NCBI GenBank assembly: GCA_964553795.1
Contig: CAZKMR010000001.1
Coordinates: forward strand, 19,230 to 83,229
DNA: 64,000 nt
Source: an uncultured Bifidobacterium sp.
Lineage (GTDB): Bacteria > Verrucomicrobiota > Verrucomicrobiia > Limisphaerales > JADLHS01
Direction of reading: 5' to 3'
Below, piece after piece: positions 19,821 to 52,663 of this stretch. Below the pieces are notes generated by a model, which did not search any database, was not told the origin of the DNA, and worked only from the letters and a program-made list of their open reading frames with translations. The stretch's first letter is position 1. Every line of letters begins with the position of its first letter. The position numbers and the translations under genes are program-made.

Positions 19821-20615
19821 ATGAATCCTGTTGCTCTGATCACCGGCGCGTCGCGTGGCATCGGTCGTGGTATCGCGCTGGAATTGGCCAAGCTCGGCTA
19901 CGATCTCGTGATCAATTACGCCGGCAACGCTGAAGCCGCGCAAAAGACGGCAGGGGATTGTGTCACAGTTGCAAGCGAAGCAGGAAAAACCATTCGTGCC
20001 GAGATCTGTCAGGCGGATATTTCGGAGAGCGCCGACCGGCAGAAACTGATTTCATTCACGCGCGAGAAGTTCAATCGTCTTGATCTGCTGGTAAACAATG
20101 CCGGCGTCGCACCGAACGTGCGCGCAGATATCCTGGAAGCGGGCGAGGAAAGCTTCGACCGCCTCATTGCCATCAACGTCAAAGGCCCGTATTTCCTCAC
20201 GCAACTCGCCGCGAAGTGGATGGTTGAAGAAACGCGGAGTGCGGAGTGCGGAGTGCGGAAACCAAAAATTGTGACAGTGAGTTCTATTTCCGCTTACACC
20301 GCTTCAACAAATCGCGGCGATTACTGTGTAAGCAAAGCGGCGCTCTCGATGTTGACGCCGTTGTTTGCGGCGCGGCTTGCGGAGTACGGCATCAATGTTT
20401 ACGAAATTCGTCCGGGAGTTATCGCCACAGACATGACCGGCGCGGTGAAGGAGAAGTATGACAAACTCATCGCCGAAGGAATGACGCCGATTCAACGCTG
20501 GGGCACGCCCGAAGACATCGGTCGCGCCGTGGCAGCGATTGCGAGCGACGCGTTTCCGTTTAGTACGGGTGAAGTCATCAACGTGGACGGCGGATTTCAT
20601 TTAAAAAGATTGTAG
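19821..20615 (+). CDS. Short-chain dehydrogenase/reductase (SDR)
   Basis: [12 protein letters not shown] cofactor motif, NNAG, and catalytic S...YCVSK. The start is ATG 19821. The TAG stop lies inside the GTAG of a repeat arm. Confidence 0.85.
20234..20259 (+). repeat. Tandem heptamer GCGGAGT x3 (plus a partial copy) inside the SDR coding sequence
   Basis: Read directly: gcggagt gcggagt gcggagt gcgga, translated as RSAECGVR in a loop just before the IVTVSS strand. Confidence 0.7.
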
Positions 20616-20695
20616 GAGACGACGTAAGGAGTCTCTAACTCGACCGAATCGCGCAGAAAACTGATTGATTTGAGACTCGTCACCTCGTCTCCTAC
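20612..20695. repeat. REPIN-like inverted doublet (GTAG-GAGAC-loop-GTCTC arms)
   Basis: The left arm is GTAGGAGACGACGTAAGGAGTCTC (20612-20635). The right arm is GAGACTCGTCACCTCGTCTCCTAC (20672-20695). The arms are inverted copies with 3 mismatches. Confidence 0.65.
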
Positions 20696-20703
20696 CAAAA
20701 AAC

Positions 20704-22218
20704 ATGGCCACAAAAATCGACACCAAACTCACGCCCCAAAAACTCCTGCCGCAAATCGAACGCGTGTTCGAGTTGTCCGGGCAAAAAATCCTGAGCATCG
20801 AAAAATCCTGGAAACCGGCGCAGGGCACGCCGGTGTTCACAGTGAAGGGTAAATACACGTCGCGCGGCTGGACGGAGTGGACGCAGGGTTTTCAATACGG
20901 TTCGGCTTTGCTGCAGTTCGATGCGATGGGCGACGAGCGGTTTCTCGAAATCGGCAAGCGCGGCACGGTGAAATACATGGCATCGCACGTGTCGCACATC
21001 GGCGTGCATGATCATGGATTCAACAATGTTTCGACGTACGGCAATTTGCTGCGCTTGATGCGCGAGGGGAAGATTCCGCAGAACGACGAGGAACAGAATT
21101 TCTACGAAATCGCGCTCAAGGTCAGCGGCGCGGTGCAGGCGTCGCGCTGGACGAAACTCGCGGATGGCACGGGGTTCATTCACAGCTTCAACGGGCCGCA
21201 CTCGCTGTTCGTGGATACGATTCGCTCGTGTCGTGCGCTGGCGGTGGCGCATCAACTCGGCCACGTGCTGATGGGCGAGCAGGACGCGAAGATTTCGTTG
21301 CTGCAACGAGTCGTCGAACACGCCCTGAACACGGCGCGCTACAACGTTTACTATGGCGAAGGGCGCGACGCTTACGATGTGCGCGGTCGCACGGCGCATG
21401 AAGCGGTGTTCAATACGGCGAGTGGGGTGTTTCGGTGCCCGAACTCGCAGCAGGGTTATTCGCCGTTCAGCACCTGGACGCGCGGGTTGGCGTGGGCGAT
21501 TTGTGGTTTTGCGGAGCAATTAGAGTTCATCCGCTTCATTCCTTGGCAAGAGCTTGAATTAGCCTCGTCGAAAAATCGGTGGCTACGAGACTATCGCTCG
21601 TTAAGCGATAAGCAAAAACTTCAACTCACACCTAAATTCGAATCTACTATTCGTAGATTGGCTACTGAGCCCGCAGCTAAAGCTTTGAAGGCGTTCCAAA
21701 CTGCCGCAATTTCTGCAGCAGACTTCTACCTCGAAAATTCCTGTGCCGATGGCGTGCCGATGTGGGACACGGGCGCGCCGAATCTGCATCGCCTGCCCGT
21801 GAATTATCTCAAGAAAGCATCCGATCCGTACAACAAGTTTGAACCGGTGGACGGGTCGGCGGCGGCGATTGCGGCGCAGGGCTTGATCCGGTTGGGCAAT
21901 TATTTAGGAAGCAATTCGAGGACGAGGACGAGAACGAAGGACGAGGACGATGGAAAGCGCTACAAACAGGCCGGGCTTACGATTGCGCGCACGTTGTTCA
22001 GCGAGCCCTGTCTTTCCACTGATCCGAAACATCAAGGTCTGTTGCTGCACTCGGTTTATCATCGGCCGAACGGCTGGGATTACATCGCGCCGGGGCAAAG
22101 CGTGCCAAATGGCGAAAGCTCGATGTGGGGCGATTATCATTTGCGTGAACTGGCTCTCCTCATTCTCCGCGAAGCGCGTGGTGAGCATTATCTGACGTTC
22201 TTTGATTCGACGAAATGA
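20704..22218 (+). CDS. GH88/GH105-like unsaturated uronyl hydrolase, carrying two apparent insertions
   Basis: WTEWTQGFQYG, HDHGFNN, WTRGLAWAICGF and a C-terminal MWGDYHLRELAL resemble unsaturated glucuronyl/rhamnogalacturonyl hydrolases. The family assignment is from memory of motifs only. Confidence 0.65.
   Translation: MATKIDTKLTPQKLLPQIERVFELSGQKILSIEKSWKPAQGTPVFTVKGKYTSRGWTEWTQGFQYGSALLQFDAMGDERFLEIGKRGTVKYMASHVSHIGVHDHGFNNVSTYGNLLRLMREGKIPQNDEEQNFYEIALKVSGAVQASRWTKLADGTGFIHSFNGPHSLFVDTIRSCRALAVAHQLGHVLMGEQDAKISLLQRVVEHALNTARYNVYYGEGRDAYDVRGRTAHEAVFNTASGVFRCPNSQQGYSPFSTWTRGLAWAICGFAEQLEFIRFIPWQELELASSKNRWLRDYRSLSDKQKLQLTPKFESTIRRLATEPAAKALKAFQTAAISAADFYLENSCADGVPMWDTGAPNLHRLPVNYLKKASDPYNKFEPVDGSAAAIAAQGLIRLGNYLGSNSRTRTRTKDEDDGKRYKQAGLTIARTLFSEPCLSTDPKHQGLLLHSVYHRPNGWDYIAPGQSVPNGESSMWGDYHLRELALLILREARGEHYLTFFDSTK
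21918..21950 (+). repeat. GAGGAC-type hexamer low-complexity run inside the hydrolase ORF
   Basis: gaggacgaggacgagaacgaaggacgaggacga is translated as RTRTRTKDEDD. Confidence 0.5.
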
Positions 22219-22296
22219 AACGCGAAGGCGCAAAGACGCGAAGACACAGCAAGTCTTGCTGCCATCCAGGAACGCCAACGGCGTTCACTGCAAGAG

Positions 22297-22370
22297 CGGA
22301 GCGTGGCTCTATGAGCCGCAGCACGTCTCTTTGCAAATCGGGCCGCTGCGGGTCACAGACCCGCGCTCCG
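22297..22370. repeat. Nested-hairpin inverted repeat, GGAGCG-frame family
   Basis: CGGAGCGTGG-CTC-TAT-GAG-CCGCAGC ... GCTGCGG-GTC-ACA-GAC-CCGCGCTCCG. The frame matches the elements at 50040-50148 and 52459-52568. Confidence 0.65.
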
Positions 22371-23183
22371 TTTTCGGGAACGCGTCTTTGCGTTAAATCG
22401 CTCCGCCTTGGTGTGGCGCTTCTGGTTTTCGCGCTGATTACCGGTTCAGCATTGTCGCAAAGCAATCCCGTGACGCTTCACATGATCGGGGACTCAACCA
22501 TGGCGAATAAACCGGTCATTCCAGCGAATCCGGAACGCGGTTGGGGGCAGATGCTGCAGATGTATTTCAAAGATTCGCTCCGCGTGGAAAATTACGCGCA
22601 AAACGGTCGCAGCACGAAGAGCTTCATCAACGAAGGTCGTTGGGACAAGGTTGTCGCTGCAATCCAACCGGGTGATTTCGTCATCATTCAATTTGGGCAC
22701 AACGATGAGAAAACGAACAACGTCAAAGTCGGGACGGCGCCCTTTGGCGAGTTCTCGGAAAATCTGACGCGCTTCATTCGCGAGTCGCGTGAGCGTCAGG
22801 CCACGCCGATTTTGGCGACGCCGGTGGCACGACGGAAGTTTGACGAGACTGGCACGCTAACGAACTCACACGGCGTTTATCCGGGAGCCGTGCGAAAGGT
22901 GGCGGCAGCGGAAAAAGTTCCCTTGCTGGAGCTGACCCTTGCGACCGAGAAACTGTTGCAACAACTCGGGCCGGAAAGTTCCAAGCGCTTGTTTGATTGG
23001 ATTCCCGCCGGTGAATTTGCAGCTCGCCCCGATGGGCTGGAAGACGACACGCATTTCAACGCTTACGGCGCGAGCCGGGTTTGCGATCTGGCGGTGATCG
23101 AGATCGAAGTCAAAATTCCCGAGTTGGCGGCGCATTTGAATCGAAAATCTCCTGCCAAAAGCGCGGCAACAATCGAGCGTTAA
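22311..23183 (+). CDS. SGNH/GDSL hydrolase (rhamnogalacturonan acetylesterase-like)
   Basis: Signal-like LRLGVALLVFALITGSALS, block I IGDSTM, and IIQFGHNDE. The start is uncertain: the only in-frame ATG (22311) lies inside the repeat element. Confidence 0.75.
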   Translation: MSRSTSLCKSGRCGSQTRAPFSGTRLCVKSLRLGVALLVFALITGSALSQSNPVTLHMIGDSTMANKPVIPANPERGWGQMLQMYFKDSLRVENYAQNGRSTKSFINEGRWDKVVAAIQPGDFVIIQFGHNDEKTNNVKVGTAPFGEFSENLTRFIRESRERQATPILATPVARRKFDETGTLTNSHGVYPGAVRKVAAAEKVPLLELTLATEKLLQQLGPESSKRLFDWIPAGEFAARPDGLEDDTHFNAYGASRVCDLAVIEIEVKIPELAAHLNRKSPAKSAATIER

Positions 23184-24278: not shown

Positions 24279-24302
24279 GAGACTCGTCACCTCGTCTCCT
24301 AC
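24279..24302. repeat. Solo REP-like arm identical to the right arm at 20672-20695
   Basis: GAGACTCGTCACCTCGTCTCCTAC is an exact 24-nt match. A decayed partner arm may overlap the last codons of the lactonase gene. Confidence 0.55.
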
Positions 24303-32290: not shown

Positions 32291-35008
32291 GTGCAGTCGC
32301 TCGAAAACCAACTCGCCGAATTGCCGGCGCTCAATCAGGTCACCGTGCCCGACCTGTGGCAGCAGCAGGCGGTGATGGCGTTGCGCGAAGGCAAAGACGT
32401 GGTCGTGCAAGCGCCGACCGGCTCGGGCAAGACGCTGATTTTCGAGTTGTGGTCCAATCAGGGCAAGCCGCGCGGTCAGGCGATTTACACGGTGCCGACG
32501 CGCGCGTTGGCCAATGACAAACTCGCCGAATGGCGCGCGCGCGGTTGGGATGTTGGCATCGCGACGGGCGATCTCGCCGAAAACCTCGGCGCTCCGGTGA
32601 TCGTGGCAACGTTGGAGACGCAGAAGAATCGGTTGATCGCAGGTGAAGGGCCGACGCTGCTCGTGGTGGATGAATACCAGATGATCAGCGATCCGGATCG
32701 CGGATTGAACTACGAACTCGCGCTCGCGCTCGCGCCGTCGCACACGCAACTTCTGCTGTTGAGCGGCAGTGTTTCCAATCCGCATCACGTGGTGCAATGG
32801 CTGAATCGCCTCGGGCGCAAGGCCGTGTTGATACGTCACGAACATCGCCCGGTGCCGCTAGATGAAGTGTGGGCGAACAATTTGAACTTTCACGTGCCTT
32901 CGGAGATTCGCGGTTATTGGGCGCGCTTGGTCGCGAAAGCGTTGGCCGAAGACCTCGGGCCGATTTTGATCTTTGCGCCGCGCCGACAAGGCGCAGAAAG
33001 CATGGCCGCTGATCTCGCGCGCAATTTGCCCACGCCCAATCCGCTCCAACTTTCCACCGAGCAAAAACAGATTGTTGGCGAACATCTCGCGAAGATGCTC
33101 AAGAGTCGCATCGCGTATCATCACAGCGGCTTGAGCTACGCAGCGCGGGCGGGCGTGATTGAACCGCTGGCGAAGGCGGGACAATTGCGCGTGGTGGTGG
33201 CGACGATGGGTTTGGCGGCGGGCATCAATTTTTCGCTGCGCAGTGTGGCGTTGGCGGGCGAATCGTATCGGCGCGATGCCGTGGAACAGCCGCTGCGCGC
33301 GGATGAGATTTTGCAGATGTTCGGTCGCGCGGGGCGACGCGGATTGGACGAAACGGGCTATGTGTTGATCACGGCGAATGAGATTCGTTTGCTGGATGCG
33401 CGGGCGTGTCATCTGTCGCGGAGCGGCGCGGTGGACTGGAGCGCGTTGTTGGGTTTGATGCAAACGGCGGCGGAGCAGGGGAAGACGCCGTTCGCGGAAG
33501 CGGTGCGCGCGCAGGAACGCTTGTTCACGACGAAGCCGATTTTGCTGGGCGTGGAAGAATCCATGAAACATCCGGTTGTGCCGTGCGGATTGCACACGGA
33601 TGCGGAGCGCGCGCGGCACGTGCGGAAACGGCAGCGCGAGATGTTGAACAGTCGCGGTGAATGGCAGGCGTATCCGATGACGACGGAAAAGCCGTTGCGC
33701 GAAATTGTGGTGGGAGACAAGGAAACGCACAGGGGAACATCCAACATCCAAGGCTCGGCGGATGGCCATTCTTTGGGAAATAGAGCTAACTCGCAGCCGG
33801 TCGGAAATGGGCAGACAGAATATTTGCAGGACGACCACTCACCCCAAAACCGTAGCCGCCGACGTGAGGAGGCGGAGCGCTCTGCAAACGAAATGCTTCC
33901 GCCTCCTCATGTCGGCGACTACCACGAGCCGGTTTCTGCAGACAGCTCGTATGAAGCGAAGCCCACTTTTCGCTCCGTGCTCTCCGAACAAGCGGCGTTG
34001 GAAAAAGTTGGGACGGGGATGATCGTGGTTCTGGAGGAACGCGAGGACGGAACAAAAGTTTACGGTCGCGCTTCAACCGTGGCGGACGTGCTCAGCGGCG
34101 ATCGTGTGATCATCGCCAAGTGGGTGCGGCGACTGACGAATTGGAACGGTCGGCAGGCGGAGTTGAGTGTGTGGCACGAAAAAATTGCGCCGTTGCTCGA
34201 ACACAGACTCGCCGGTCAGCATACGCCGGTGGTGAAGTTCGTGAAGCAGGCGCAACGCATTCTCGTTTACGTGAGTCTCGCAGACCTGACGATGCGCGTG
34301 CCGGTGGATAATTACGGTGTGGCGATGTGGAAACCGGTCGAGCGGGAAGTGTTGCCCTACGATTGCGCGCAGTGTTCGCTGGTCGAAGTGTGCAAAACGC
34401 TGCCGACGGCGACGGGAACGGCGTTGACGTGGCGGCGTTTGAATCTCGTGGATGCGGAAGGCAAGCCGACGCTGCGCGGGCGCGTGGTGAGTTTCTTTCA
34501 ACAGGGCGACGGCTTGGCAATCGCTGCGGCGCTGGAGGATGAGCGGTATCCGTTGGACGAATTGATTTACGACATCGCGAATTTAGACGGCGGTTTTCGC
34601 TTTTGCGGCGATGAGAATCGTTATGCGGGCCGATTGGCGAATGCGTGTCACGAGAAGTTTCAATTGCTCAGCATACCCGGCTATCTCGAAAACGGGTTGC
34701 CGCCGAAATATGGTTACGGCGCGGAAGCGGTCGTGCAGAGCGTGCATAAAAATCCCGCGAGCAAACATCATTGGGTGACGGATTTGCTCGGGGCGGGGGA
34801 CATTGATCGGGCGATTATCGAGTGGCGTAGTTTACTGCGGCAAATTTCGCATGCGCCGGAACTGGAGTGGCCGCGCTGGAGCGCGTTTCAGGCGTTGGCA
34901 AAGACGACGTTGAACGAGACGGAATCGCCGACGCTAACGGAGTTACCGCGGCTGGAGTACCACCAAACGCGGCGCGTGGATCATCGGTTGATTTTGCGGC
35001 GGCATTGA
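32291..35008 (+). CDS. Superfamily-2 DEAD/DEAH-box (Ski2/HelY-like) helicase
   Basis: Motif I QAPTGSGKT, motif II VVDEYQ, motif VI QMFGRAGRRG, and a large C-terminal domain. It contains a low-complexity, repeat-bearing insert around 33720-33960. Confidence 0.85.
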   Translation: MQSLENQLAELPALNQVTVPDLWQQQAVMALREGKDVVVQAPTGSGKTLIFELWSNQGKPRGQAIYTVPTRALANDKLAEWRARGWDVGIATGDLAENLGAPVIVATLETQKNRLIAGEGPTLLVVDEYQMISDPDRGLNYELALALAPSHTQLLLLSGSVSNPHHVVQWLNRLGRKAVLIRHEHRPVPLDEVWANNLNFHVPSEIRGYWARLVAKALAEDLGPILIFAPRRQGAESMAADLARNLPTPNPLQLSTEQKQIVGEHLAKMLKSRIAYHHSGLSYAARAGVIEPLAKAGQLRVVVATMGLAAGINFSLRSVALAGESYRRDAVEQPLRADEILQMFGRAGRRGLDETGYVLITANEIRLLDARACHLSRSGAVDWSALLGLMQTAAEQGKTPFAEAVRAQERLFTTKPILLGVEESMKHPVVPCGLHTDAERARHVRKRQREMLNSRGEWQAYPMTTEKPLREIVVGDKETHRGTSNIQGSADGHSLGNRANSQPVGNGQTEYLQDDHSPQNRSRRREEAERSANEMLPPPHVGDYHEPVSADSSYEAKPTFRSVLSEQAALEKVGTGMIVVLEEREDGTKVYGRASTVADVLSGDRVIIAKWVRRLTNWNGRQAELSVWHEKIAPLLEHRLAGQHTPVVKFVKQAQRILVYVSLADLTMRVPVDNYGVAMWKPVEREVLPYDCAQCSLVEVCKTLPTATGTALTWRRLNLVDAEGKPTLRGRVVSFFQQGDGLAIAAALEDERYPLDELIYDIANLDGGFRFCGDENRYAGRLANACHEKFQLLSIPGYLENGLPPKYGYGAEAVVQSVHKNPASKHHWVTDLLGAGDIDRAIIEWRSLLRQISHAPELEWPRWSAFQALAKTTLNETESPTLTELPRLEYHQTRRVDHRLILRRH
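33852..33922. repeat. REPIN-like inverted doublet inside the helicase ORF
   Basis: GTAGCCGCCGACGTGAGGAGGCGGA (33852-33876), a 21-nt spacer, then TCCGCCTCCTCATGTCGGCGACTAC (33898-33922). The arms are complementary at 23/25 positions. Confidence 0.7.
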
Positions 35009-42379: not shown

Positions 42380-43300
42380 ATGTCCGAGCCGGCCACCGCC
42401 CCGCCACCACTCTCGAAGGCGAAAGTCTTTGTGCGTCGTCTCTCCAGTACCGCCGTTTTGTGGACGGTGGTGTTGGTGGCGATGTTCTCGGGTAACAAAC
42501 TGATTTCCGATTACGTGTTCGCCGGCTTCATGGTGGTGCTGGCGTGCGTCGGGTTAATGGAGTTTTACGGTTTGGTCGCCAAACGCGGGCTGGTTTGTTT
42601 CAAGCTCTCGGGGATTATTGCCGGCGTCTTGATGATGGTGGTCACCTCGTTGCATTGCACCGGCCGGCTCGGACCACACGACAATCCCGCGCTGGTCAAC
42701 GATTTTGAAACCACCATTCTCATTCTGTTCGTGCTGGGATTGTGCGTGCGGCAGTTCGTGTCCAAGTCGAACACCGCCGGCATCCTGGCGATTTCCACCA
42801 CCCTGTTCGGGCTGATGTACGTGCCGTGGTTGCTGAACTTCATTCAGAAGATCAATTATTTCCCGGGCATCAACGACAACGGCAAATACTTCGTCCTTTA
42901 TTTCATTCTGGTGACGAAATTCAGCGACACGGGCGCGTATGCGATTGGGTCGTTGATTGGTAAACACAAGATGATCCCGCGCATCAGTCCGGCGAAAACG
43001 TGGGAAGGTTTCGGGGGCGCCATTCTGGTGGCGACTGGAGCGAGTTTGGCCTTCTCGCACTTTTTCGCGGCCCAGATGCCCGGCATGACGCCGCTACACG
43101 CGGTGATTGTGGGGGTCATTCTAAGTTCCACCGCGGTAGTGGGAGATTTGATTGAATCGCTGTTCAAGCGCGAAGCCGGCGTGAAGGATTCGGGGAACTT
43201 TTTTCCGGGCATCGGCGGCATTCTGGATCTGTTGGACAGCTTGTTGTTCAACGCGCCGATCATGTATCTCTATCTGCGTTACGTTCTCAATCCTTCATGA
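42380..43300 (+). CDS. cdsA: Phosphatidate cytidylyltransferase
   Basis: Polytopic membrane protein with the CdsA signature SDTGAYAIGSLIGKHKM..ISPAKTWEG and DLIESLFKREAGVKDSG. Confidence 0.85.
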   Translation: MSEPATAPPPLSKAKVFVRRLSSTAVLWTVVLVAMFSGNKLISDYVFAGFMVVLACVGLMEFYGLVAKRGLVCFKLSGIIAGVLMMVVTSLHCTGRLGPHDNPALVNDFETTILILFVLGLCVRQFVSKSNTAGILAISTTLFGLMYVPWLLNFIQKINYFPGINDNGKYFVLYFILVTKFSDTGAYAIGSLIGKHKMIPRISPAKTWEGFGGAILVATGASLAFSHFFAAQMPGMTPLHAVIVGVILSSTAVVGDLIESLFKREAGVKDSGNFFPGIGGILDLLDSLLFNAPIMYLYLRYVLNPS

Positions 43301-44442
43301 AAAACGTTGTTGTCCTCGGTTGCACCGGTTCCATCGGTACGAGCACCGTCAAAGTGGCGGAAGATTTGCCGGATCGGCTGCGGTTGATTGGGTTGGCGGC
43401 CGGCAATAATGCTGACCTGTTGATTGAACAGACGCGCAAGCATCGTCCGGTGGCGGTGTCCATCAGTGACCCGGCGAAGGCCAATGAATTGCGCGGCACG
43501 CTCGGCGCACATTGTGAGGTCTATTCCGGCGCGGAAGGACTGATCAAACTCGCGACGCATCCGGAGGCGGACATCGTGTTGATTGCCATCGTCGGCACGG
43601 CGGGATTGCAACCGGCGCTGGCGGCGATTCGGGCGGGTAAAGACATTGCGGTGGCGTCGAAGGAGATTCTCGTCATGGCTGGTGAAACCGTGATGAGCGA
43701 AGCGCGCAAACACGGCGTTCGCGTGCTGGCCGTGGACAGTGAACATTCAGCCATCTTCCAGTGTCTCGACGACAAGCCGGCGTCATCGGTGCGCAAACTC
43801 TGGCTCACGGCGAGCGGCGGACCGTTTCGCGATAAAACGATTTGGCCGAAAGAGAATTTTTCTGAAATCACCGTAGAACGCGCGCTCAAGCATCCATCGT
43901 GGGTGATGGGACGGAAGATCACGATTGATTCCGCGACGCTGTTCAACAAGGGGCTGGAGATGATTGAGGCGCGGTGGCTGTTCGATATCGAGATGGCGCG
44001 CGTCGGCGTCTTGGTTCATCCGCAAAGCATCGTGCATTCGATGGTGGAGTTTGTGGACGGCTCGTTGCTGGCGCAGTTGTCCACGCCGGACATGTGTTTG
44101 CCGATTCAATATGCATTGACCTACCCGGAGCGGGTGGCGAGCGAACGTGTCCAAACGGATTTCCCGAAAGTGGGCACACTGACGTTTGAAGAGCCGGATT
44201 TGGAGCGGTTTCCCGCGCTCAATCTGGCGCGGCGCGCGGGCGAGGTCGGCGGCACGCTGCCTGCGGTATTGAACGCCGCCAATGAAGTCGCGGTCGAAGC
44301 CTTCGTGAATCGCCAGCTCAATTTCCCGCAAATCACTGAGACCGTGCGTCGTGTGATGGAGGCGCATCAGGTGGAGGCGCATCCGTCGCTGGACCAGATT
44401 CTCGCGGCAGACGCCTGGGCACGGGCGGAGGCGGGGCGTTGA
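43297..44442 (+). CDS. dxr: 1-deoxy-D-xylulose-5-phosphate reductoisomerase
   Basis: VLGCTGSIGTST, LAVDSEHSAIFQCL, LTASGGPFR and NKGLEMIEA. An ATGA overlap joins it to cdsA. Confidence 0.95.
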   Translation: MKNVVVLGCTGSIGTSTVKVAEDLPDRLRLIGLAAGNNADLLIEQTRKHRPVAVSISDPAKANELRGTLGAHCEVYSGAEGLIKLATHPEADIVLIAIVGTAGLQPALAAIRAGKDIAVASKEILVMAGETVMSEARKHGVRVLAVDSEHSAIFQCLDDKPASSVRKLWLTASGGPFRDKTIWPKENFSEITVERALKHPSWVMGRKITIDSATLFNKGLEMIEARWLFDIEMARVGVLVHPQSIVHSMVEFVDGSLLAQLSTPDMCLPIQYALTYPERVASERVQTDFPKVGTLTFEEPDLERFPALNLARRAGEVGGTLPAVLNAANEVAVEAFVNRQLNFPQITETVRRVMEAHQVEAHPSLDQILAADAWARAEAGR

Positions 44443-44507
44443 ATGAATTGCCGCGCGGGATTTCATCGTTATACTTCTTTCGCTCCTTGGGGGCACACTG
44501 ATTACGC

Positions 44508-45932
44508 ATGTCCATATTAAAAGTCATCCTGGTGGTGTTGGAAGCGCTGCTCGCGCTGAACCTGCTCATTTTCGTTCACGAACTCGGGCACTTCCTTGCC
44601 GCGCGCTGGCGCGGTTTGAAAGTCGAACGCTTCGCCATCTGGTTCGGCAAGCCGATCTGGAGCAAGAAGATCAACGGTGTGGAATATGCGCTCGGCTGGA
44701 TTCCCGCCGGCGGTTACGTGTCGCTCCCCCAAATGGCCACGATGGAAGCCATCGAAGGCAAAACCGAGGAAAAGGCTGAGCAACTACCGAACATTTCGCC
44801 GCTGGACAAGATCATCGTGGCGTTTGCCGGACCGCTGTTCAGTTTTCTGCTGGCAATTATGTTCGCGGTGCTCGTCTGGCAAGTCGGCAAACCGGTGAGC
44901 GTGGTGGAAGAAGCACCCGTGCTGGGGTGGGTCGTGCCCGAAGGGCCGGCGTGGAAGGCGGGGTTGCGCCCCGGCGATCAAATCCTCGAGATCGACGACA
45001 AACCGGTAACCACCTTTGGCCCGCCGTCGCGGGATAGCATCACCTGGCGCGTCATTACCAGCGAGGGGGAACAACTCAAGATCAAGTATGAGCGCGACGG
45101 GCAAACCAATGTCGTTTTCGCCACTCCCGAAAAAGCAAAGACGAAATGGTATGAACGCCGCGCCTTGCGGATGATCAAAGTGGGCCCGGTCGAAACGGCG
45201 ATGATCTACAACGTCGCTTCGAACAGTCCCGCGGCGCTGGCCGGAATTCGTCCCGGGGACATTATCACCAAATTGAATGGCGAAGACATTTTGAGTTACG
45301 CGGAGGTGTTTCATGCGCAAGCCGGCCAGACCAATCCCAGCGCAGGCCCCGTGGAATTCACAGTGAAACGAGGCGCGGAGGAATTCACGCGCACGCTCGC
45401 CGCCGTCAAGCCGGTTTCCCCCACCAACATGCCGCCCTCATTTGGGATTCTGAGTTTTCAAGCGAATACGAACGTCGCCGTGAAATACCGGCATCCCAGC
45501 CCGTGGGAGCAGATCGAAGACAGCGCCGGTCAGATTTTCGCGACCATCGGCGCGGTATTTTCACCGAAAACTGACATCGGCGTGCAACAACTCGGCGGCG
45601 CGGTGATGATCATCCGCGTTTACAAAAACCTGTTTGAGAACGAAGACGGCTGGCGCTTGGTGCTCTGGTTCAGCGTCGTCCTCAACGTGAATCTCGCGAT
45701 GCTGAATATGTTGCCGCTGCCCGTGCTGGATGGCGGACACATCACGCTCGCATTGGTCGAAGCGGCGCGGCGCCGCCCCGTCAGTCCCAGATTGCTCAAT
45801 TATATTCAAAGCGGCTTCGCGATTCTCTTAATCACCTTCATGTTGTGGATTGCATTCTTCGATACGGGCGATTGGATTCGCAGCGCCCGGTCGGATCGCG
45901 AGCACAAAATTGTTTTTGCCCCGCAACAGTAA
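44508..45932 (+). CDS. rseP: RIP site-2 zinc metalloprotease RseP (M50)
   Basis: HELGHFLAA zinc motif, PDZ domains (GLRPGDQILEID; GIRPGDIITKLNG) and a C-terminal LNMLPLPVLDGG. Confidence 0.9.
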   Translation: MSILKVILVVLEALLALNLLIFVHELGHFLAARWRGLKVERFAIWFGKPIWSKKINGVEYALGWIPAGGYVSLPQMATMEAIEGKTEEKAEQLPNISPLDKIIVAFAGPLFSFLLAIMFAVLVWQVGKPVSVVEEAPVLGWVVPEGPAWKAGLRPGDQILEIDDKPVTTFGPPSRDSITWRVITSEGEQLKIKYERDGQTNVVFATPEKAKTKWYERRALRMIKVGPVETAMIYNVASNSPAALAGIRPGDIITKLNGEDILSYAEVFHAQAGQTNPSAGPVEFTVKRGAEEFTRTLAAVKPVSPTNMPPSFGILSFQANTNVAVKYRHPSPWEQIEDSAGQIFATIGAVFSPKTDIGVQQLGGAVMIIRVYKNLFENEDGWRLVLWFSVVLNVNLAMLNMLPLPVLDGGHITLALVEAARRRPVSPRLLNYIQSGFAILLITFMLWIAFFDTGDWIRSARSDREHKIVFAPQQ

Positions 45933-45942
45933 GCATTGGCTT

Positions 45943-47799
45943 ATGCGTTATTGCGATTCTCCCTACGTCTTCAAACGTCGCCAGACGCGCGAGGTGGTCA
46001 TTGGCGATCCGGCGAACGGGGGCGTGATCATTGGTGGCGATCATCCAGTGGTCGCACAATCCATGATCACCTGCGACACGATGGACACGGCGGCGAGCGT
46101 GCAGCAAACGCTTGATCTCGTCGCGGTCGGTTGCCAGATCGTGCGCATCACCGCGCCAACGGTGAAGGACGCGGCGAACTTGCAGAACATCGTGGCGGAA
46201 TTGCGCCAGCGCGGTTGCAACGTGCCGATTGTCGCGGACATTCACTTCAAACCCGAAGCCGCGATGGAAGCGGTGAAATGGGTGGAAGTCATTCGCGTCA
46301 ATCCCGGTAACTATGCCGACTCCAAGAAATTCGCGATCAAGGAATACACCGACGAGCAATACGCGGCGGAGCTGAAGCGGATTGAAGAAAAGTTCACGCC
46401 GCTCGTGCTCGAGTGCCTGAAGCTCAAGCGCGCGATGCGCATCGGCACGAACCACGGTTCACTCAGCGATCGCATCATGAATCGCTACGGCGACACGCCG
46501 TTGGGAATGGTCGAAAGCGCGCTGGAATTCGCCCGCATCTGCCGCAAGCACGACTTTCACAACTTCAAGTTCTCGATGAAGTCGAGCAATCCGAAGGTGA
46601 TGATTGAGTGTTATCGCCTATTAGTGGCGCGGCTGGAACAGGAAGGACCGGATTGGAATTATCCGATTCACCTCGGCGTCACTGAAGCCGGCGAAGGCGA
46701 GGATGGACGCATCAAGAGCGCCATCGGGATCGGCTCGCTATTGTGCGACGGCTTGGGCGATACGATTCGCGTTTCGCTGACGGAAGATTCGCCGCGCGAA
46801 ATTGAAGTCTGCCGCGATTTGCTCGCGCAGATTCCGTTGCTCGCCAATACAAAGACCAGCATTGCGGAAACGAGTTTTCCCTTTGATCCCTTTCACTTCG
46901 AAAAGCGACAGACGCCCGAGATTGAACTGAACGAACAAGTCAAATGCGGCGGCGAACAACTTATCCGCGTCGTCGTCACCAGAGCGACCTGGGACAAAGT
47001 CGCGCCGAAGATTCGTCCCAAGGACGATGTAAAACCCGAAGCGGTTTACGAGGATTTGAACGTTGCGGAGCTTGATCCGACTCAAGACTTCGAAATCAAC
47101 TGCGACACGCAACTGGTCACCGTGAAGGACGGCGTGAATTTGCCGGCCATCACGGCGTTTCGCTTGTTGGTCGCTAAATTGAAGCGGCTGGGTCGCAAGA
47201 ATCCCATTTTGCTGAAAGATTGTCTGGGATTCGGTGGTAGCCGCCGAGGTAACGAGGCGGACACTTCGATTGGCAAGAATCCGCCTCCTCACGTCGGCGG
47301 CTACGAAGTTCTTGAGCCGAAGATCGCTTTGCTTCGCGCCTCGGTAGTCATCGGATCATTGCTGGCGGATGGCATCGGCGATGCGATTCTCGTTCGGGGC
47401 GAATCGGGTGCGGGCCAAAGTCTGCGGCTCGCGTATAATATTTTGCAGGCGGCGGGTTGCCGCAGCTTCAAGACGGATTACGTCGCTTGCCCGAGTTGCG
47501 GTCGCACATTGTTCAATCTCCAGACCGTCACCGCGCGCATCAAAGCGCGCACGGAACATCTCAAGGGCGTGAAAATCGCCATCATGGGTTGCATCGTAAA
47601 TGGTCCGGGCGAAATGGCGGATGCGGATTTCGGTTACGTTGGCGGCGCGCCGGGCAAAATCAATCTCTACGTCGGCAAAACTCCGATCAAGTTCAACATC
47701 CCCGAAGCCGAAGCGGTGGAGCGGCTCGTGGATTTGATTCGCGAACACGGCAAGTGGGTTGAGCCGGAAGTCGAATTGGCGAAAGTAGAACAGTCGTAA
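45943..47799 (+). CDS. ispG: 4-hydroxy-3-methylbut-2-enyl diphosphate synthase, long form
   Basis: VRITAPT, IVADIHF, IRVNPGN, a C-terminal ACPSCGRT ... GCIVNGPGE Fe-S motif, and a large internal domain typical of long-type IspG. The start is ATG 45943. Confidence 0.9.
   Translation: MRYCDSPYVFKRRQTREVVIGDPANGGVIIGGDHPVVAQSMITCDTMDTAASVQQTLDLVAVGCQIVRITAPTVKDAANLQNIVAELRQRGCNVPIVADIHFKPEAAMEAVKWVEVIRVNPGNYADSKKFAIKEYTDEQYAAELKRIEEKFTPLVLECLKLKRAMRIGTNHGSLSDRIMNRYGDTPLGMVESALEFARICRKHDFHNFKFSMKSSNPKVMIECYRLLVARLEQEGPDWNYPIHLGVTEAGEGEDGRIKSAIGIGSLLCDGLGDTIRVSLTEDSPREIEVCRDLLAQIPLLANTKTSIAETSFPFDPFHFEKRQTPEIELNEQVKCGGEQLIRVVVTRATWDKVAPKIRPKDDVKPEAVYEDLNVAELDPTQDFEINCDTQLVTVKDGVNLPAITAFRLLVAKLKRLGRKNPILLKDCLGFGGSRRGNEADTSIGKNPPPHVGGYEVLEPKIALLRASVVIGSLLADGIGDAILVRGESGAGQSLRLAYNILQAAGCRSFKTDYVACPSCGRTLFNLQTVTARIKARTEHLKGVKIAIMGCIVNGPGEMADADFGYVGGAPGKINLYVGKTPIKFNIPEAEAVERLVDLIREHGKWVEPEVELAKVEQS
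47237..47304. repeat. REPIN-like inverted doublet inside the ispG ORF
   Basis: GTAGCCGCCGAGGTAACGAGGCGGA (47237-47261), an 18-nt spacer, then TCCGCCTCCTCACGTCGGCGGCTAC (47280-47304). The arms are complementary at 22/25 positions. Confidence 0.7.
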
Positions 47800-47894
47800 T
47801 TCTCAAGTTTCCCGCTGCTGGTTCGGCTTTTATTCGTTTCTGATCGGCTAAAACAATCTTTCTCCGCCGCTCGCGCTCCACTATTCTCCGCGGC

Positions 47895-48779
47895 GTGCGT
47901 TGGAACAAAATCACACTCGTTGGCGTCGGCTTGCTGGGCGGTTCGCTTGGCCTGGCGCTGCGCCGACGTAAGCTCGCCAAAGAGATTGCCGGCTATGTTC
48001 GACGGGAGGCGAGTATCGCGGAGTGTGAGCAAGCGGGTGCAACGGATTACGCGACGACCGATTTGCTCGCCGCAGTTTCAAATGCGGATTTGATCATCCT
48101 CTGCACGCCGTTAGCACAAATGAAATCGCTGACGCGGCAAATGCTTCCGGCGCTGAAGCGCGGCGCGATTGTCAGCGACGTTGGCAGTGTGAAAGCCTGT
48201 GTCGTGAAGGATGTCGAAACGCTGATTCACAAAGCGGGCGCGCATTTTGTGGGGAGTCATCCGATGGCGGGTGGCGAAAAACAGGGCGTGCTGGCGGCGC
48301 GGGCGGAATTGTTCGAGAACGCGATTTGCGTCGTCACCCCAACGCGGAAAACCAACGCAACCGCCTTGCGCAAAGTGGAAACTCTGTGGCGCGATGTTGG
48401 GGCGCGATTGCTGCGCACCACGCCGGAAGCGCATGATGAGTTTGTGAGCCGCTCCAGTCACTTGCCGCATCTGCTGGCGGCGACGCTGGCGAATCTGGTG
48501 CTCAATCCGAAATTGCCCAAAGAACAAACCAAACTTTGTGCAACCGGTTTTCGTGACACGACGCGGATTGCGTCCGGTTCGCCGGAGATGTGGCGGGACA
48601 TCGCGATGACCAATCGCAAGTATCTCCTTCGCGCGGTAAAAACCTTTGCTGGTGACTTGGGCAAGTTTGAAAAAGCGTTGAAGCAAAATGATGCCCAAGC
48701 CATCGCCAATTTTTTCCAGACTGCCAAGCAGCGGCGTGACAACTGGTGCGCGGCGTGTGCGTCATCTTCGTCCGAGTAA
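47895..48779 (+). CDS. tyrA: Prephenate/arogenate dehydrogenase
   Basis: ITLVGVGLLGGSLGLAL NAD fold, GSHPMAG, SHLPHLLA and PEMWRDI. Confidence 0.85.
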   Translation: MRWNKITLVGVGLLGGSLGLALRRRKLAKEIAGYVRREASIAECEQAGATDYATTDLLAAVSNADLIILCTPLAQMKSLTRQMLPALKRGAIVSDVGSVKACVVKDVETLIHKAGAHFVGSHPMAGGEKQGVLAARAELFENAICVVTPTRKTNATALRKVETLWRDVGARLLRTTPEAHDEFVSRSSHLPHLLAATLANLVLNPKLPKEQTKLCATGFRDTTRIASGSPEMWRDIAMTNRKYLLRAVKTFAGDLGKFEKALKQNDAQAIANFFQTAKQRRDNWCAACASSSSE

Positions 48780-48797
48780 CTCCACCAAATACTAATT

Positions 48798-49526
48798 ATG
48801 AGCGAACCTAGCGAATTCAGCGACAGCGGTCAGCCGATTTATCGGCATACGGAGCGAAAGCGGGAATTTGAGTTCGCTGCCGGCGACGAACAAAGCATCG
48901 AACTTATTTCGGATCACATCGAGAAACATCTCGGCACTCCGGCGACGGTGTTTCACGAGTTGATTTCGGATCTCGTCCATATTGACGTTCATATCATAGC
49001 GCCCACTGAGGAGCGGCCGTTTTATTCGCTGATCACCTCGGGGATGAGCGACAAACCGATGAATGCCCCGGAAGGAGCCGAGGACTTGCGGTACGCCGAA
49101 TTGATGATTTGTCTTCCGCCTGACTGGCCGATGACGCAAGAAGAATGGAAGAAAGACCAGGATAGTTTCTGGCCGATCCAGTCGCTGAAATTTCTCGCCC
49201 GGTTTCCGCATGAATACGATACCTGGCTTTGCCTTGATCACACCGTCCCGAATGGCGACCCGCCCGAACCATTCGGAAACACCGAATTCTGTTGCGCGAT
49301 GCTGGGCGGCTGCGCCACAGCGCCGCAGGAGTTCTGGCAACTGAAGGTCAGTGAGGATAAAACCATCAACTTCTTCGGGTTATACTTCCTTTATCGCGAA
49401 GAGATGGATTTGAAGATGAAGAAAGGTGCGGAGGCGCTTTGGGAGCTGTTGGAGAAAAGCAACGTGACCGAATTGCTGGACGTCTCGCGCAAGAATACGG
49501 CGAAAAAACGATTTGGAATATTTTAG
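48798..49526 (+). CDS. SUFU-like (suppressor-of-fused family) domain protein
   Basis: HIDVHIIAPTEERPFYSLITSGMSDKPM..AELMICLPPDWP...WPIQSLKFLARFPHEY matches my memory of the bacterial SUFU/Imm-SUFU domain pattern. Confidence 0.6.
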   Translation: MSEPSEFSDSGQPIYRHTERKREFEFAAGDEQSIELISDHIEKHLGTPATVFHELISDLVHIDVHIIAPTEERPFYSLITSGMSDKPMNAPEGAEDLRYAELMICLPPDWPMTQEEWKKDQDSFWPIQSLKFLARFPHEYDTWLCLDHTVPNGDPPEPFGNTEFCCAMLGGCATAPQEFWQLKVSEDKTINFFGLYFLYREEMDLKMKKGAEALWELLEKSNVTELLDVSRKNTAKKRFGIF

Positions 49527-49534
49527 TGCCTCGG

Positions 49535-50992
49535 ATGCCTCTTCCCGATTTGATCGAAATCATCCCGCTCGACGAGCCCGTGCGCGCGGAGATCACCGTG
49601 CCTGGTTCGAAGAGCATCACGAATCGCGCGCTCATTCTCGCGGCGCTGGCGGATGGTGAAGTGACGTTGACGGGCGCGCTGTGGAGTGAGGATACGCAGG
49701 TGATGACCGAGGCGTTGCGAACGCTCGGATTCGACGTGCGCGTGGAGAATGATCCGGCGGAGTTTTGTAATCGGACGATTACGGTCAAAGGGCAGGGCGG
49801 ACGGATTCCCAAAGCAGGCACGGCGGAAAAGCCGCTGGAGCTGTTTGTGGGCAATGCGGGTACAGCAGCGCGGTTTCTGGCGGCGCTGGTTTGTTTGGGC
49901 AACGGCGTGTATCGGTTGAGCGGCGTGCCGCGGATGCACGAACGTCCGCAGGCGGAATTGTTCAAGGCGTTGCGCGAACTTGGCTATCGCGTGGAGACAC
50001 CGAACGAAAAGTTGCCGGCAGTGATTTTTGGCGAAGCGCCGGAGCGCGGCTCTGTGAGCCGCAGCGATTCGGCCACGCCGGAGGCTTCCATTGATTCTGG
50101 ACGTGAAAAAGCTGACGAGAGCGCTGCGGGTCGCAGACCCGCGCTCCGGAAGCGCAGTTGCACCGTCAGCATTTCGGAAAGCTCGCAATTTGCCTCGGCG
50201 CTGTTGCTCGCGGCGAAGCATGGTGGATGGGAAGTGAAGATTGCCGGTGATGATGACGAGGAAGCGCCGTATGTAGTAATGACCCAACGATTGATCGAAT
50301 CGTTTCCCAAACGTGGAGGTCGTTTTCAGATTGAGCCGGATGCATCCAGCGGCAGTTATTTTTGGGGCGCGGGCTGGTTGGTTACAGTGAAATGGTGGCT
50401 GGGTGCTCCGGTTGAGGAACTAGGTCCGGAGGGTTCGCCGATTTGGGTAAAGGCGTGGCCGAAATCTGGCTGGCAAATTGATGCGGCATTTCCCGATTTC
50501 CAGCCTTGGCCGGAAAGTATTTCGCGTGAAGGTCAGTTGGCTGACAGCATCATGACTGCGGTGGTGTTGGTCGCAGACCGGGAAAGTGCAGTTGATTGTT
50601 ATCTTGAGCCTCGTGCGGAGATGAAATTCACCGAACTTGGCCGGTTGCGCGTGCAGGAATGTGAGCGCGTCGTTGCTTTGCGCACGGAGTTGACCAAGTG
50701 CGGAGCAAAAGTGGTTGAAGAAGGCGACACGTTGACGGTTTACCCCTCCGATCTGCACGGCGCGGAGATCGAGACCTACAACGATCATCGCATGGCCATG
50801 TGTTTTGCGATTCTGGGATTGAAAGTGCCGGGGATAAAAATCAAGAATCCCGCGTGCGTGAAGAAGACGTTCCCCAATTTTTTCCAGAAACTCGCCGCGC
50901 CGCCACCCAATGGATTGGGCGTGGAGATTTGGGAAATTAAGGACGCCCAACGGACACGGAAATTGGAAGGTGAAGATTTGTTTGCGGACTGA
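49535..50992 (+). CDS. aroA: 3-phosphoshikimate 1-carboxyvinyltransferase (EPSP synthase) with an in-frame repeat-derived insert
   Basis: PGSKSITNRALILAALA, LFVGNAGTAARFL, MHERP, SSQFASALLL, DHRMAMCFAILGL and VKKTFPNFF. The start is ATG 49535. Confidence 0.9.
   Translation: MPLPDLIEIIPLDEPVRAEITVPGSKSITNRALILAALADGEVTLTGALWSEDTQVMTEALRTLGFDVRVENDPAEFCNRTITVKGQGGRIPKAGTAEKPLELFVGNAGTAARFLAALVCLGNGVYRLSGVPRMHERPQAELFKALRELGYRVETPNEKLPAVIFGEAPERGSVSRSDSATPEASIDSGREKADESAAGRRPALRKRSCTVSISESSQFASALLLAAKHGGWEVKIAGDDDEEAPYVVMTQRLIESFPKRGGRFQIEPDASSGSYFWGAGWLVTVKWWLGAPVEELGPEGSPIWVKAWPKSGWQIDAAFPDFQPWPESISREGQLADSIMTAVVLVADRESAVDCYLEPRAEMKFTELGRLRVQECERVVALRTELTKCGAKVVEEGDTLTVYPSDLHGAEIETYNDHRMAMCFAILGLKVPGIKIKNPACVKKTFPNFFQKLAAPPPNGLGVEIWEIKDAQRTRKLEGEDLFAD
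50040..50148. repeat. Nested-hairpin inverted repeat (GGAGCG-frame family) inside the aroA ORF
   Basis: CGGAGCGCGG-CTC-TGT-GAG-CCGCAGCG (left) ... CGCTGCGG-GTC-GCA-GAC-CCGCGCTCCG (right). The arms are near-identical to those at 22297-22370. Confidence 0.7.
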
Positions 50993-51005: not shown

Positions 51006-51084
51006 GTTGAAAGTTGAAGGTTGCAAGTTGGCAGAGAAACGTCGCGGGTAAATCACCTGCAACTTGCAACCTTCAACTTGTAAC
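51006..51084. repeat. Long inverted repeat (about 28-bp stem) built of GTTGNAA heptads, between aroA and cmk
   Basis: The left arm is gttgaaagttgaaggttgcaagttggcag (51006-51034). The right arm is ctgcaacttgcaaccttcaacttgtaac (51057-51084). The loop is 22 nt. Confidence 0.65.
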
Positions 51085-52399: not shown

Positions 52400-52458
52400 G
52401 GCCTCGGCGAGTAAACGGGTGTGATTAAAAGTGGGTGAGGCGCGGCGCAGATCATTGT

Positions 52459-52568
52459 GGAGCGCGGACGGTCTCCGTCCGCAGCGCGCCGCCAGCACGA
52501 CCCGCAACGAATTTGTCCGAGCCACCTTTTCCTGTCCCTGCGCTGCGAGCGGGGACCGCTCGCGCTCC
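52459..52568. repeat. Nested-hairpin inverted repeat (GGAGCG-frame family), intergenic
   Basis: GGAGCGCGG-ACGG-TCT-CCGT-CCGCAGCG ... CGCTGCG-AGCGG-GGA-CCGCT-CGCGCTCC. The outer frame matches the aroA and 22297 copies, but the inner stems differ. Confidence 0.6.
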
Positions 52569-52663
52569 AGCAGATCCCGACACTCACTTTTAATTGCATC
52601 CCACCACAACAGTCTTCAAGGAAATGTATTTTCCAATCGGATGGCGGTTCGTAAGCTACGCCG

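Follow-up and report, generated by a model that had tools for sequence, protein, structure and literature searches.

How does a palindromic repeat come to be read in frame inside the coding sequence of ispG (gcpE)? The question is raised by a 68-nt inverted doublet at positions 47237-47304 of the window, by which we mean the whole 64-kb (64,000-nt) stretch of contig CAZKMR010000001.1 analyzed here, from an uncultured member of the Limisphaerales (Verrucomicrobiota). An original prediction, made from the sequence letters, had identified the doublet as a repetitive extragenic palindromic (REP) element of the REPIN (REP doublet forming a hairpin) type, the kind moved by REP-associated tyrosine transposases (RAYTs). 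The observation is confirmed and its interpretation as a whole is partly supported. We consider it probable, at roughly 0.85, that the feature is a RAYT-mobilized REP doublet that inserted in a permissive loop of the A* domain of IspG, where it adds 22 codons, is translated, and has been inherited vertically.

A GTAG-tagged repeat family within and beyond ispG

The letters of the window contain the predicted doublet, whose 25-nt arms agree at 22 of 25 positions (mismatches at positions 12, 15 and 17) around an 18-nt spacer. Its parts and its host gene are as follows.

47237..47304, plus strand: REP doublet (REPIN type, head-to-head), 68 nt, in frame in ispG, recognized by inverted repeat, fold and reading frame
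47237..47261, plus strand: left REP unit GTAGCCGCCGAGGTAACGAGGCGGA, composed of GTAG, CCGCC GA G GTAA C GA GGCGG and a final A; G-C inner-pair type
47262..47279, plus strand: 18-nt spacer CACTTCGATTGGCAAGAA, coding for DTSIGK; 49% pairwise identity across orthologues, unconstrained
47280..47304, minus strand: right REP unit, composed of GTAG, CCGCC GA C GTGA G GA GGCGG and a final A; C-G inner-pair type
45943..47799, plus strand: ispG (gcpE), three-domain form; Pfam GcpE at 1e-122 in two stretches, alignment to 3NOY, identical database protein P0001 (618 aa)

The reverse complement of the right arm, GTAGCCGCCGACGTGAGGAGGCGGA, matches the family consensus exactly, and a longer version of the inverted repeat, with 30-nt arms, is still 83% complementary. 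Searched with a degenerate arm pattern, the window has four matches, and 100 shuffles put the expected number at 0.00. The 88-nt stretch containing the doublet folds at -46 kcal/mol, as compared with -27.7 +/- 3.4 kcal/mol for shuffled sequence (z = -5.43), and none of 200 shuffles folded as well. When this copy is aligned with a second one in a helicase gene of the window (listed below), similarity begins at GTAG and stops at CTAC. With regard to the features of miniature inverted-repeat transposable elements, the ispG copy has G...G as flanking bases and the helicase copy has C...C, which is compatible with a 1-nt target duplication or with chance; no target duplication longer than 1 nt was seen at either copy, and no related insertion sequence was found. 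An Rfam search of the whole window at gathering thresholds returned no family match.

Each REP unit is a GTAG tag and a hairpin, in which five covarying base pairs are followed by a tandem G.A/A.G mismatch, a sixth pair that also covaries, and a loop of sequence GTNA. This anatomy was assessed with a scan of 1.73 Mb (the window and fetched loci) anchored only on GTAG and GA[CG]GTNA[GC]GA, run besides fuzzy-consensus scans. The anchored scan returned 277 units, and in 260 of them the free N5/N5 segments pair at four or five of five positions. These units comprise 39 stem types, for example CCGCC/GGCGG, GAGAC/GTCTC, GAGTC/GACTC and CAGCC/GGCTG, and their inner pair is C-G in 169 and G-C in 94. 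Among 69 distinct units, covariation is 0.418 versus 0.158 in shuffled sets (0 of 500 as high), slid partners reach at most 0.084, and five of the six stem pairs change on both sides. The claim that each arm is GTAG followed by its own hairpin thus holds.

The ispG doublet, 68 nt long, is a single copy of a mobile repeat that is dispersed and non-autonomous and has REPIN architecture. The window holds four elements amounting to seven REP units; besides the ispG doublet, they and the second host gene are listed here.

33852..33922, plus strand: second doublet of the same subfamily, 71 nt, arms 33852-33876 and 33898-33922 (92% complementary), in a DEAD/DEAH-box helicase gene
32291..35008, plus strand: DEAD/DEAH-box helicase gene, 905 aa, with Pfam DEAD and Helicase_C; host of the second doublet
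20612..20695, plus strand: intergenic doublet of a sister subfamily (stem GAGAC/GTCTC), arms GTAGGAGACGACGTAAGGAGTCTC and GTAGGAGACGAGGTGACGAGTCTC
24279..24302, minus strand: single REP unit of the GAGAC/GTCTC sister subfamily, intergenic, between two ORFs (open reading frames)

The helicase doublet has a 21-nt spacer, folds at -50.7 kcal/mol and is read in the same frame as the ispG copy, as RSRRREEAERSANEMLPPPHVGDY. Outside the window, the exact pattern was scanned for in prokaryotic genomes, one for each species, and occurred in at least 120 stretches. Among the matches listed, nearly all were Verrucomicrobiota metagenome-assembled genomes (MAGs), the taxa included Limisphaerales, Pedosphaera, Opitutaceae and others, and several MAGs gave three or four separate contigs with the pattern. 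The motif is therefore not confined to ispG, since the helicase gene has it and so do other genomes. Head-to-head doublets make up 70 of 147 elements in 1.67 Mb.

RAYT genes were sought by tblastn with the sequences printed in the supplement of Di Nocera et al. The R. baltica RAYT matched an ORF in a related contig, L096 935-1561, at 39% identity and E = 2e-39. Its best match in the PDB is E. coli TnpA-REP, 4ER8 (E = 8.5e-5), with the HUH and Y-NPV motifs aligned, and it has more than 1,300 database homologues, with the JGI name "REP element-mobilizing transposase RayT". Four REP units of the same family as the ispG doublet flank this gene, at 819-842, 893-916, 1516-1539 and 1591-1614. RAYT homologues in L201, L204 and L207 likewise carry related GTAG units on their flanks, in inverted orientation. 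From the presence of these repeats on the flanks of RAYT genes in related Verrucomicrobiota, we infer that the family is mobilized by RAYTs. The REP/REPIN identification is upheld by the GTAG-tagged doublet, the dispersed family and the relatives that flank RAYT genes.

Within ispG, the ORF 45850..47799 is open through the doublet (...CLGFGGSRRGNEADTSIGKNPPPHVGGYEVLEPK...), and the ATG at 45943 is its likely start, given that the database protein P0001, which is identical, is 618 aa long. The translation spanning the insert is GFGGSRRGNEADTSIGKNPPPHVGGYEV; the doublet itself codes for (G)SRRGNEADTSIGKNPPPHVGGY, residues 433-454 (S433-Y454) of the 618-aa IspG, and the peptide stretch at the insert in the predicted protein is NPPPHVGGYEVLEPK. 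IspG is divided into an A TIM barrel (residues ~11-294), an A* segment (~295-495) and a B Fe-S domain (~496-601). Residues 11-294 and 496-601 align to A. aeolicus IspG (3NOY), residues 295-495 are unmatched, and IspG orthologues carry PF04551 and PF26540. The insert falls within A*, a segment that two-domain IspGs lack altogether. With the ORF open throughout and the B domain intact against 3NOY, the frame and the Fe-S part are undisturbed, as had been predicted. Verrucomicrobia are reported to possess A*, the role of which has not been elucidated (PMC10663253). An AlphaFold model built with 54 close homologues has a mean pLDDT of 54.6 with all of A* below 50, and the loop could not be placed on the surface of the protein in it.

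Regarding gene context, the order across 43297-50992 is dxr, rseP (an M50 site-2 protease), ispG, a prephenate dehydrogenase-like gene, a 242-aa ORF and an aroA-like ORF. In the orthologous contigs L209-L213, too, rseP and ispG are neighbors, with Peptidase_M50 upstream of GcpE.

The insertion site in IspG orthologues

The site was compared in 120 IspG orthologue clusters (84-100% identity) and in 80 metagenomic loci, L001-L080, which were retrieved by tblastn and required no intact ORF. Its empty form is 24 nt, or eight codons, reading C-[LI]-x-F-E-x-V-P, as in CLTFENSA/LEPK. It is found in 25 loci and about 20 protein clusters, and most others are filled. Evidence of mobility comes from these filled and empty states at orthologous sites. 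Most of the 120 clusters carry this doublet or variant subfamilies (SRRRESAQ...APTDVGGY, SRGCKSAD...PPIHIGGY), and others carry unrelated inserts. In the DNA loci all 16 of 16 inserts are in frame and stop-free, and each folds as a palindrome. They belong to several families.

L001, L002: window-type GTAG doublet
L004, L017: variant GTAG subfamilies
L003, L007, L018: CCCCTCACCCC...GGGGAGAGGG family
L011, L021: GTGG-tagged REPs
L020, L025: TTGGAGTTCA palindrome
L053: single GTAGCGCAGG REP
L009: complex palindromic insert

The insertion points of the different families vary by a few bases inside the 24-nt site, so recurrence here would be more in keeping with a permissive-loop filter than with one exact DNA target. 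As to the claim that the insert is lineage-specific, many close IspG orthologues are without it. Distant orthologues lack these residues, and metagenomes and MAGs that were assembled independently have the insert as well; neither observation goes against the original prediction.

Conservation within the element was measured on eight orthologous DNA copies of ispG (the window, L001, L002 and L209-L213) with the same arm types and the same flanks. Their arms show 92.6% pairwise identity and their spacers 49%; the spacer is 18 nt in seven copies and 21 nt in one, a change of a whole codon. At four-fold sites the arms are 92% identical, as compared with 55% in 210 flanking codons. The right arm of L211 has a compensatory CCACC/GGTGG change. 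In L212 two doublets of different subfamilies coexist unmixed in ispG, which speaks against simple homogenization by gene conversion. These data point to a nucleotide-level constraint on the DNA or RNA hairpin that applies to the arms and not to the spacer. The constancy of the arms could be caused either by selection on the hairpin or by conversion from like copies.

IspG has a second repeat hot spot just before FPFDPF at the A/A* junction (residues ~297-315, window ~46830-46890). Examples lie at L052 2368-2435, L013 10945-10968, L004 1951-1974 and L212 1204-1262. This site holds GTAG doublets read in another frame (VAADVRRL...LLTSAAT) or single units, and other repeat-derived peptides seen there in orthologues are TLSEGRVTRVPNSTGEKSLGLAELVPPN, TVKRLNGDSVKSGNSFNDLTHHSFN and TMVGTSSTSSQTSSENGTQWNASLPG. 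The ispG of the window has the short form AQIPLLANTKTSIAETS at this position. A separate observation concerns L021, whose ispG bears a GTGG-tagged REP doublet: directly downstream, at 3589-4038, is a Y1/HUH transposase-like frame with one stop codon, which matches TIR (terminal inverted repeat)-associated tyrosine transposases by tblastn with E down to 4e-14.

Doublets in other genes and the competing explanations

The original prediction held that such elements are normally extragenic and that one inside a gene would be unusual outside Rickettsia. The second of these, the claim of rarity, fails. We took a census of 120 loci retrieved by DNA pattern alone, using an ORF-length heuristic (a minimum of 250 aa for the open frame and of 50 codons to either side of the element). 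By this measure 33 of 65 doublets (51%) and 17 of 74 single units lie inside long open frames, while 65% of random 70-nt windows in the same 120 loci meet the same long-ORF criterion. Doublets are thus placed near-randomly with respect to ORFs, and the ispG case is typical of its lineage rather than exceptional. The ispG and helicase copies, both within ORFs and in frame, agree with this, and in-frame intragenic REPs had also been described before in several species (Di Nocera et al. 2013, PMC3733652). Pfam, through domains that flank the insert or extend across it, confirms as real host genes those for UvrB, HrpB, UvrA, IleRS, ValRS, a P-type ATPase and an MmeI-like enzyme. In the 33 other genes, the left arm is read only in the two stop-free frames (24 SRR-type and 9 VAAD-type) and never in the frame that contains TAG.

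The helicase doublet lies in a hypervariable linker behind the Helicase_C domain. It is missing from the closest orthologue, P0242 (88% identity). Among 120 orthologue clusters the insert is unique to this genome, and P0309 has one different insertion. The linker (33690-33990, residues 467-580) has VKDHPHPGAPLRPALS as its shortest form. Its variants include GAPASGPAS...AGSETGAP, PLPGGEGQGEGER, GQASRLS...ETGATPVL, IYDLRFTIYE...NRKSEIV and STGVSPVVSGVS...; they add up to ~150 residues, and most resemble translated dispersed repeats.

Taken together, these observations suggest the following sequence of events. A RAYT (TnpA-REP, HUH/Y1) transposase would move the family as single-stranded DNA, and one copy would have landed in an eight-codon surface loop of the A* domain of a three-domain IspG. 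The ispG frame stays open because the net insertion is 22 whole codons and the frame avoids the TAG of GTAG. Judging from the conservation of the frame, the element would be translated as a 22-residue loop, SRRGNEA...PPPHVGGY. The ispG copy would then have been passed on vertically in a clade of Limisphaerales/Pedosphaera-like bacteria. The doublet is most likely a tolerated passenger in a permissive loop, and it would have no part in catalysis.

Several results weigh against this account. No RAYT gene lies within the 64-kb window, so the RAYT link stands for the four related contigs, where homologues with flanking repeats were found, and not for the window; the element may be immobile in the source genome. 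Pfam gave no match to the L096 RAYT homologue even at E = 10, and its assignment consequently rests on tblastn to published RAYTs, 4ER8, source names and flanking REPs. The filled ispG site is two codons short of the empty site plus the element. The GTAG-to-CTAC lengths of intragenic doublets have no constant remainder modulo 3 (remainder 2 in 19, 1 in 14 and 0 in 4), so that neither the precise unit inserted nor a duplication or deletion of the target can be read from them. In a neighbor-joining tree of the 120 IspG orthologues with variable sites masked, which is star-like at 84-93% identity, insert types are intermingled, so a single ancient insertion is not demonstrated. Finally, a tolerated passenger does not by itself predict the difference between 92% and 55% identity at four-fold sites.

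It is because the arms are conserved that the main rival to a tolerated passenger is an exapted element, in which the hairpin would have a host function, for example as an mRNA structure that paces translation, as a processing or stability site, or as DNA bound by a host factor or by the RAYT. The contrast of the arms (92.6% overall, 92% at four-fold sites) with flanking four-fold sites (55%) and spacer (49%) fits such a function, as do the compensatory change in L211 and the unmixed subfamilies in L212, which count against simple homogenization. However, many close orthologues have an empty site or unrelated palindromes there, and the spacer peptide drifts freely. The element is also read in different frames in different genes, so that any function would be at the nucleic-acid level only. 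The comparison consists of eight DNA sequences, and gene conversion from other CCGCC-type copies is another route to the same pattern. We regard exaptation as unlikely. The doublet might also be present in the DNA yet be bypassed by the ribosome or removed from the RNA, giving a protein without the 22 residues. A very stable hairpin and conservation of nucleotides rather than peptide would suit this proposal, but bypass would free the frame and the stop codons, and all inserts in DNA-retrieved loci are in frame and stop-free, spacer lengths change by whole codons, and none of 33 other genes reads the element in the frame with TAG. Bypass or removal is accordingly very improbable. Least credible of all is that no mobile element is involved and that the doublet is a chance-palindromic, lineage-specific IspG loop or an assembly artifact. 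The one point in favor of such a view is that the prediction came from a single genome window, but it is excluded by the same 25-nt arm in an unrelated helicase gene 13 kb away, by the at least 120 stretches in other genomes and by the related units flanking RAYT genes, and the insert recurs in independent assemblies.

A broader proposal goes beyond the ispG copy: REP doublets may be actively maintained, not just tolerated, inside coding sequences of Limisphaerales/Pedosphaera-type Verrucomicrobiota. This idea, which we put forward tentatively and think doubtful on balance, arises from the arm identity at synonymous sites (92% against 55% in neighboring sequence) and from the proportion of doublets in long ORFs (51% against 65% at random). 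If it were true, intragenic hairpins would act as DNA or mRNA structures, such as pause, processing or RAYT-dependent recombination sites. REP palindromes of several families would then replace each other at hot spots, of which IspG has two and the helicase one, and they would be a major continuing source of loop and linker sequence in the proteomes of the phylum.

Other repeats in the window and in related loci were also noted. Three further palindromes in the window are as follows.

51006-51084: 79-nt near-perfect palindrome GTTGAAAGTTGAAGGTTGCAAGTTG...CAACTTGCAACCTTCAACTTGTAAC, -39.6 kcal/mol, 14 nt past the end of the aroA-like ORF at 50992
52458-52569: 112-nt double-hairpin palindrome TGGAGCGCGGACGGTCTCCGTCCGCAGCGC...GCGCTGCGAGCGGGGACCGCTCGCGCTCCA, -59.6 kcal/mol, crossed only by short open frames
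22297-22370: 74-nt palindrome CGGAGCGTGGCTC...GACCCGCGCTCCG, -44.5 kcal/mol, ~30 codons into ORF 22215..23183

The reverse complement of the first reads NLQPSTFN, and NLQPSTFNLQ fills the first IspG hot spot in P0037, P0053, P0072 and P0098; this peptide suggests a further family of dispersed repeats with members inside genes too. The second resembles the GGGAGCGCGGGCGTCCCGCC... element at the ispG site in L009. The third is either an in-frame repeat near the N-terminus or an indication that the true start codon is downstream of the palindrome. In the UvrB gene of L091 (2735-5032), two adjoining repeat-derived inserts lie between the helicase domains, a GTAG doublet RSSRREEAHSSKDIDQSLLTSAAT and then PLTPSLSPSGGERVVPQSEG, the latter from the family at the ispG site in L003, L007 and L018. 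In L156 (1599-1902), four REP units in the same orientation, spaced ~80-100 nt apart and each apparently half of a doublet, lie inside a 300-aa open frame; this cluster suggests a REP array and not one insertion.

Comparison with known repeat systems

The practical meaning of these inserts is that they inflate and fragment Verrucomicrobiota gene calls and produce spurious hypothetical proteins (recognizable by LLTSAAT, VAADVRR and PPPHVGGY), and that they flag permissive loops in IspG, UvrA/B and aminoacyl-tRNA synthetases. In evolutionary terms, empty and filled orthologous sites, rival repeat families in one loop and a RAYT offer a tractable system for studying the ways in which selfish palindromes give rise to protein sequence, and for asking why the arms have remained intact where synonymous sites have diverged to saturation.

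Di Nocera et al. 2013 (PMC3733652) divided REPs into GTAG and CGTC superfamilies, with GTAG REPs tied to RAYTs, and reported in-frame intragenic REPs of both kinds in several species, as units and dimers coding for 20-30 residues. Intragenic units are a recognized minority state of REP families in that survey. Intragenic GTAG repeats were most numerous in Opitutus terrae, where their hosts include helicases, uvrA and ligase, and REP-bearing tRNA synthetase genes were listed for species other than O. terrae. The closest known relatives in kind are the GTAG-17 to GTAG-20 repeats of O. terrae (Di Nocera, De Gregorio & Rocco 2013, BMC Genomics 14:522, PMC3733652), which come from the same phylum and have GTAG followed by a short GC-rich hairpin. 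Like the present family, they frequently form head-to-head dimers that are in frame and code for 20-30 residues; the O. terrae RAYT is ote 2468. The sequence family differs, however. O. terrae peptides include VGPALAAG and none with VGGY or GGY, and the tandem G.A stem interruption and the GTNA loop set the present family apart from the O. terrae ones. Moreover, ispG is not a listed host in PMC3733652, nor are several families at a single site or arm conservation reported there.

The REPIN-RAYT system of Pseudomonas (Bertels & Rainey 2011, PMC3116915) and the REP/BIME (bacterial interspersed mosaic element) system of E. coli with TnpA-REP (4ER8) share with this family the paired inverted REPs, presumed to be what moves, the GTAG tag and vertical persistence, and with the related contigs a RAYT gene flanked by its own REPs. 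Those elements are extragenic, whereas here 33 of 65 doublets lie in long ORFs against 65% of random positions, and the RAYT of the related contigs is only distantly similar to that of E. coli (E = 8.5e-5). The Rickettsia palindromic elements (RPE), as summarized in PMC3733652 (Ogata et al. 2000, 2002; Claverie & Ogata 2003), are likewise in-frame, surface-compatible, translated extra loops. The R. conorii intragenic repeats RPE-4 and RPE-6 are CGTC-tagged, a class without a known dedicated transposase, and RPE-1 is a longer palindromic insertion (PMC3733652). In contrast, the ispG doublet is GTAG-tagged, has a Verrucomicrobiota host and is unrelated in sequence, so that the likeness is functional only. 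With respect to the host protein, the three-domain (A-A*-B) IspG of plants, Chlamydiae, Bacteroidota and Verrucomicrobia, as described by Liu et al. 2012 and outlined in PMC10663253, has the same architecture. What goes beyond it is the 22-residue repeat-derived loop and the variable site before FPFDPF, which occur in some Verrucomicrobiota only.

The kind of element is therefore already known, while ispG is a new host and the GTAG-REP family a new sequence family. Added to the findings of Di Nocera et al. are two multi-family hot spots in IspG, a near-random distribution of doublets with respect to ORFs, and the conservation of the arms at synonymous sites.

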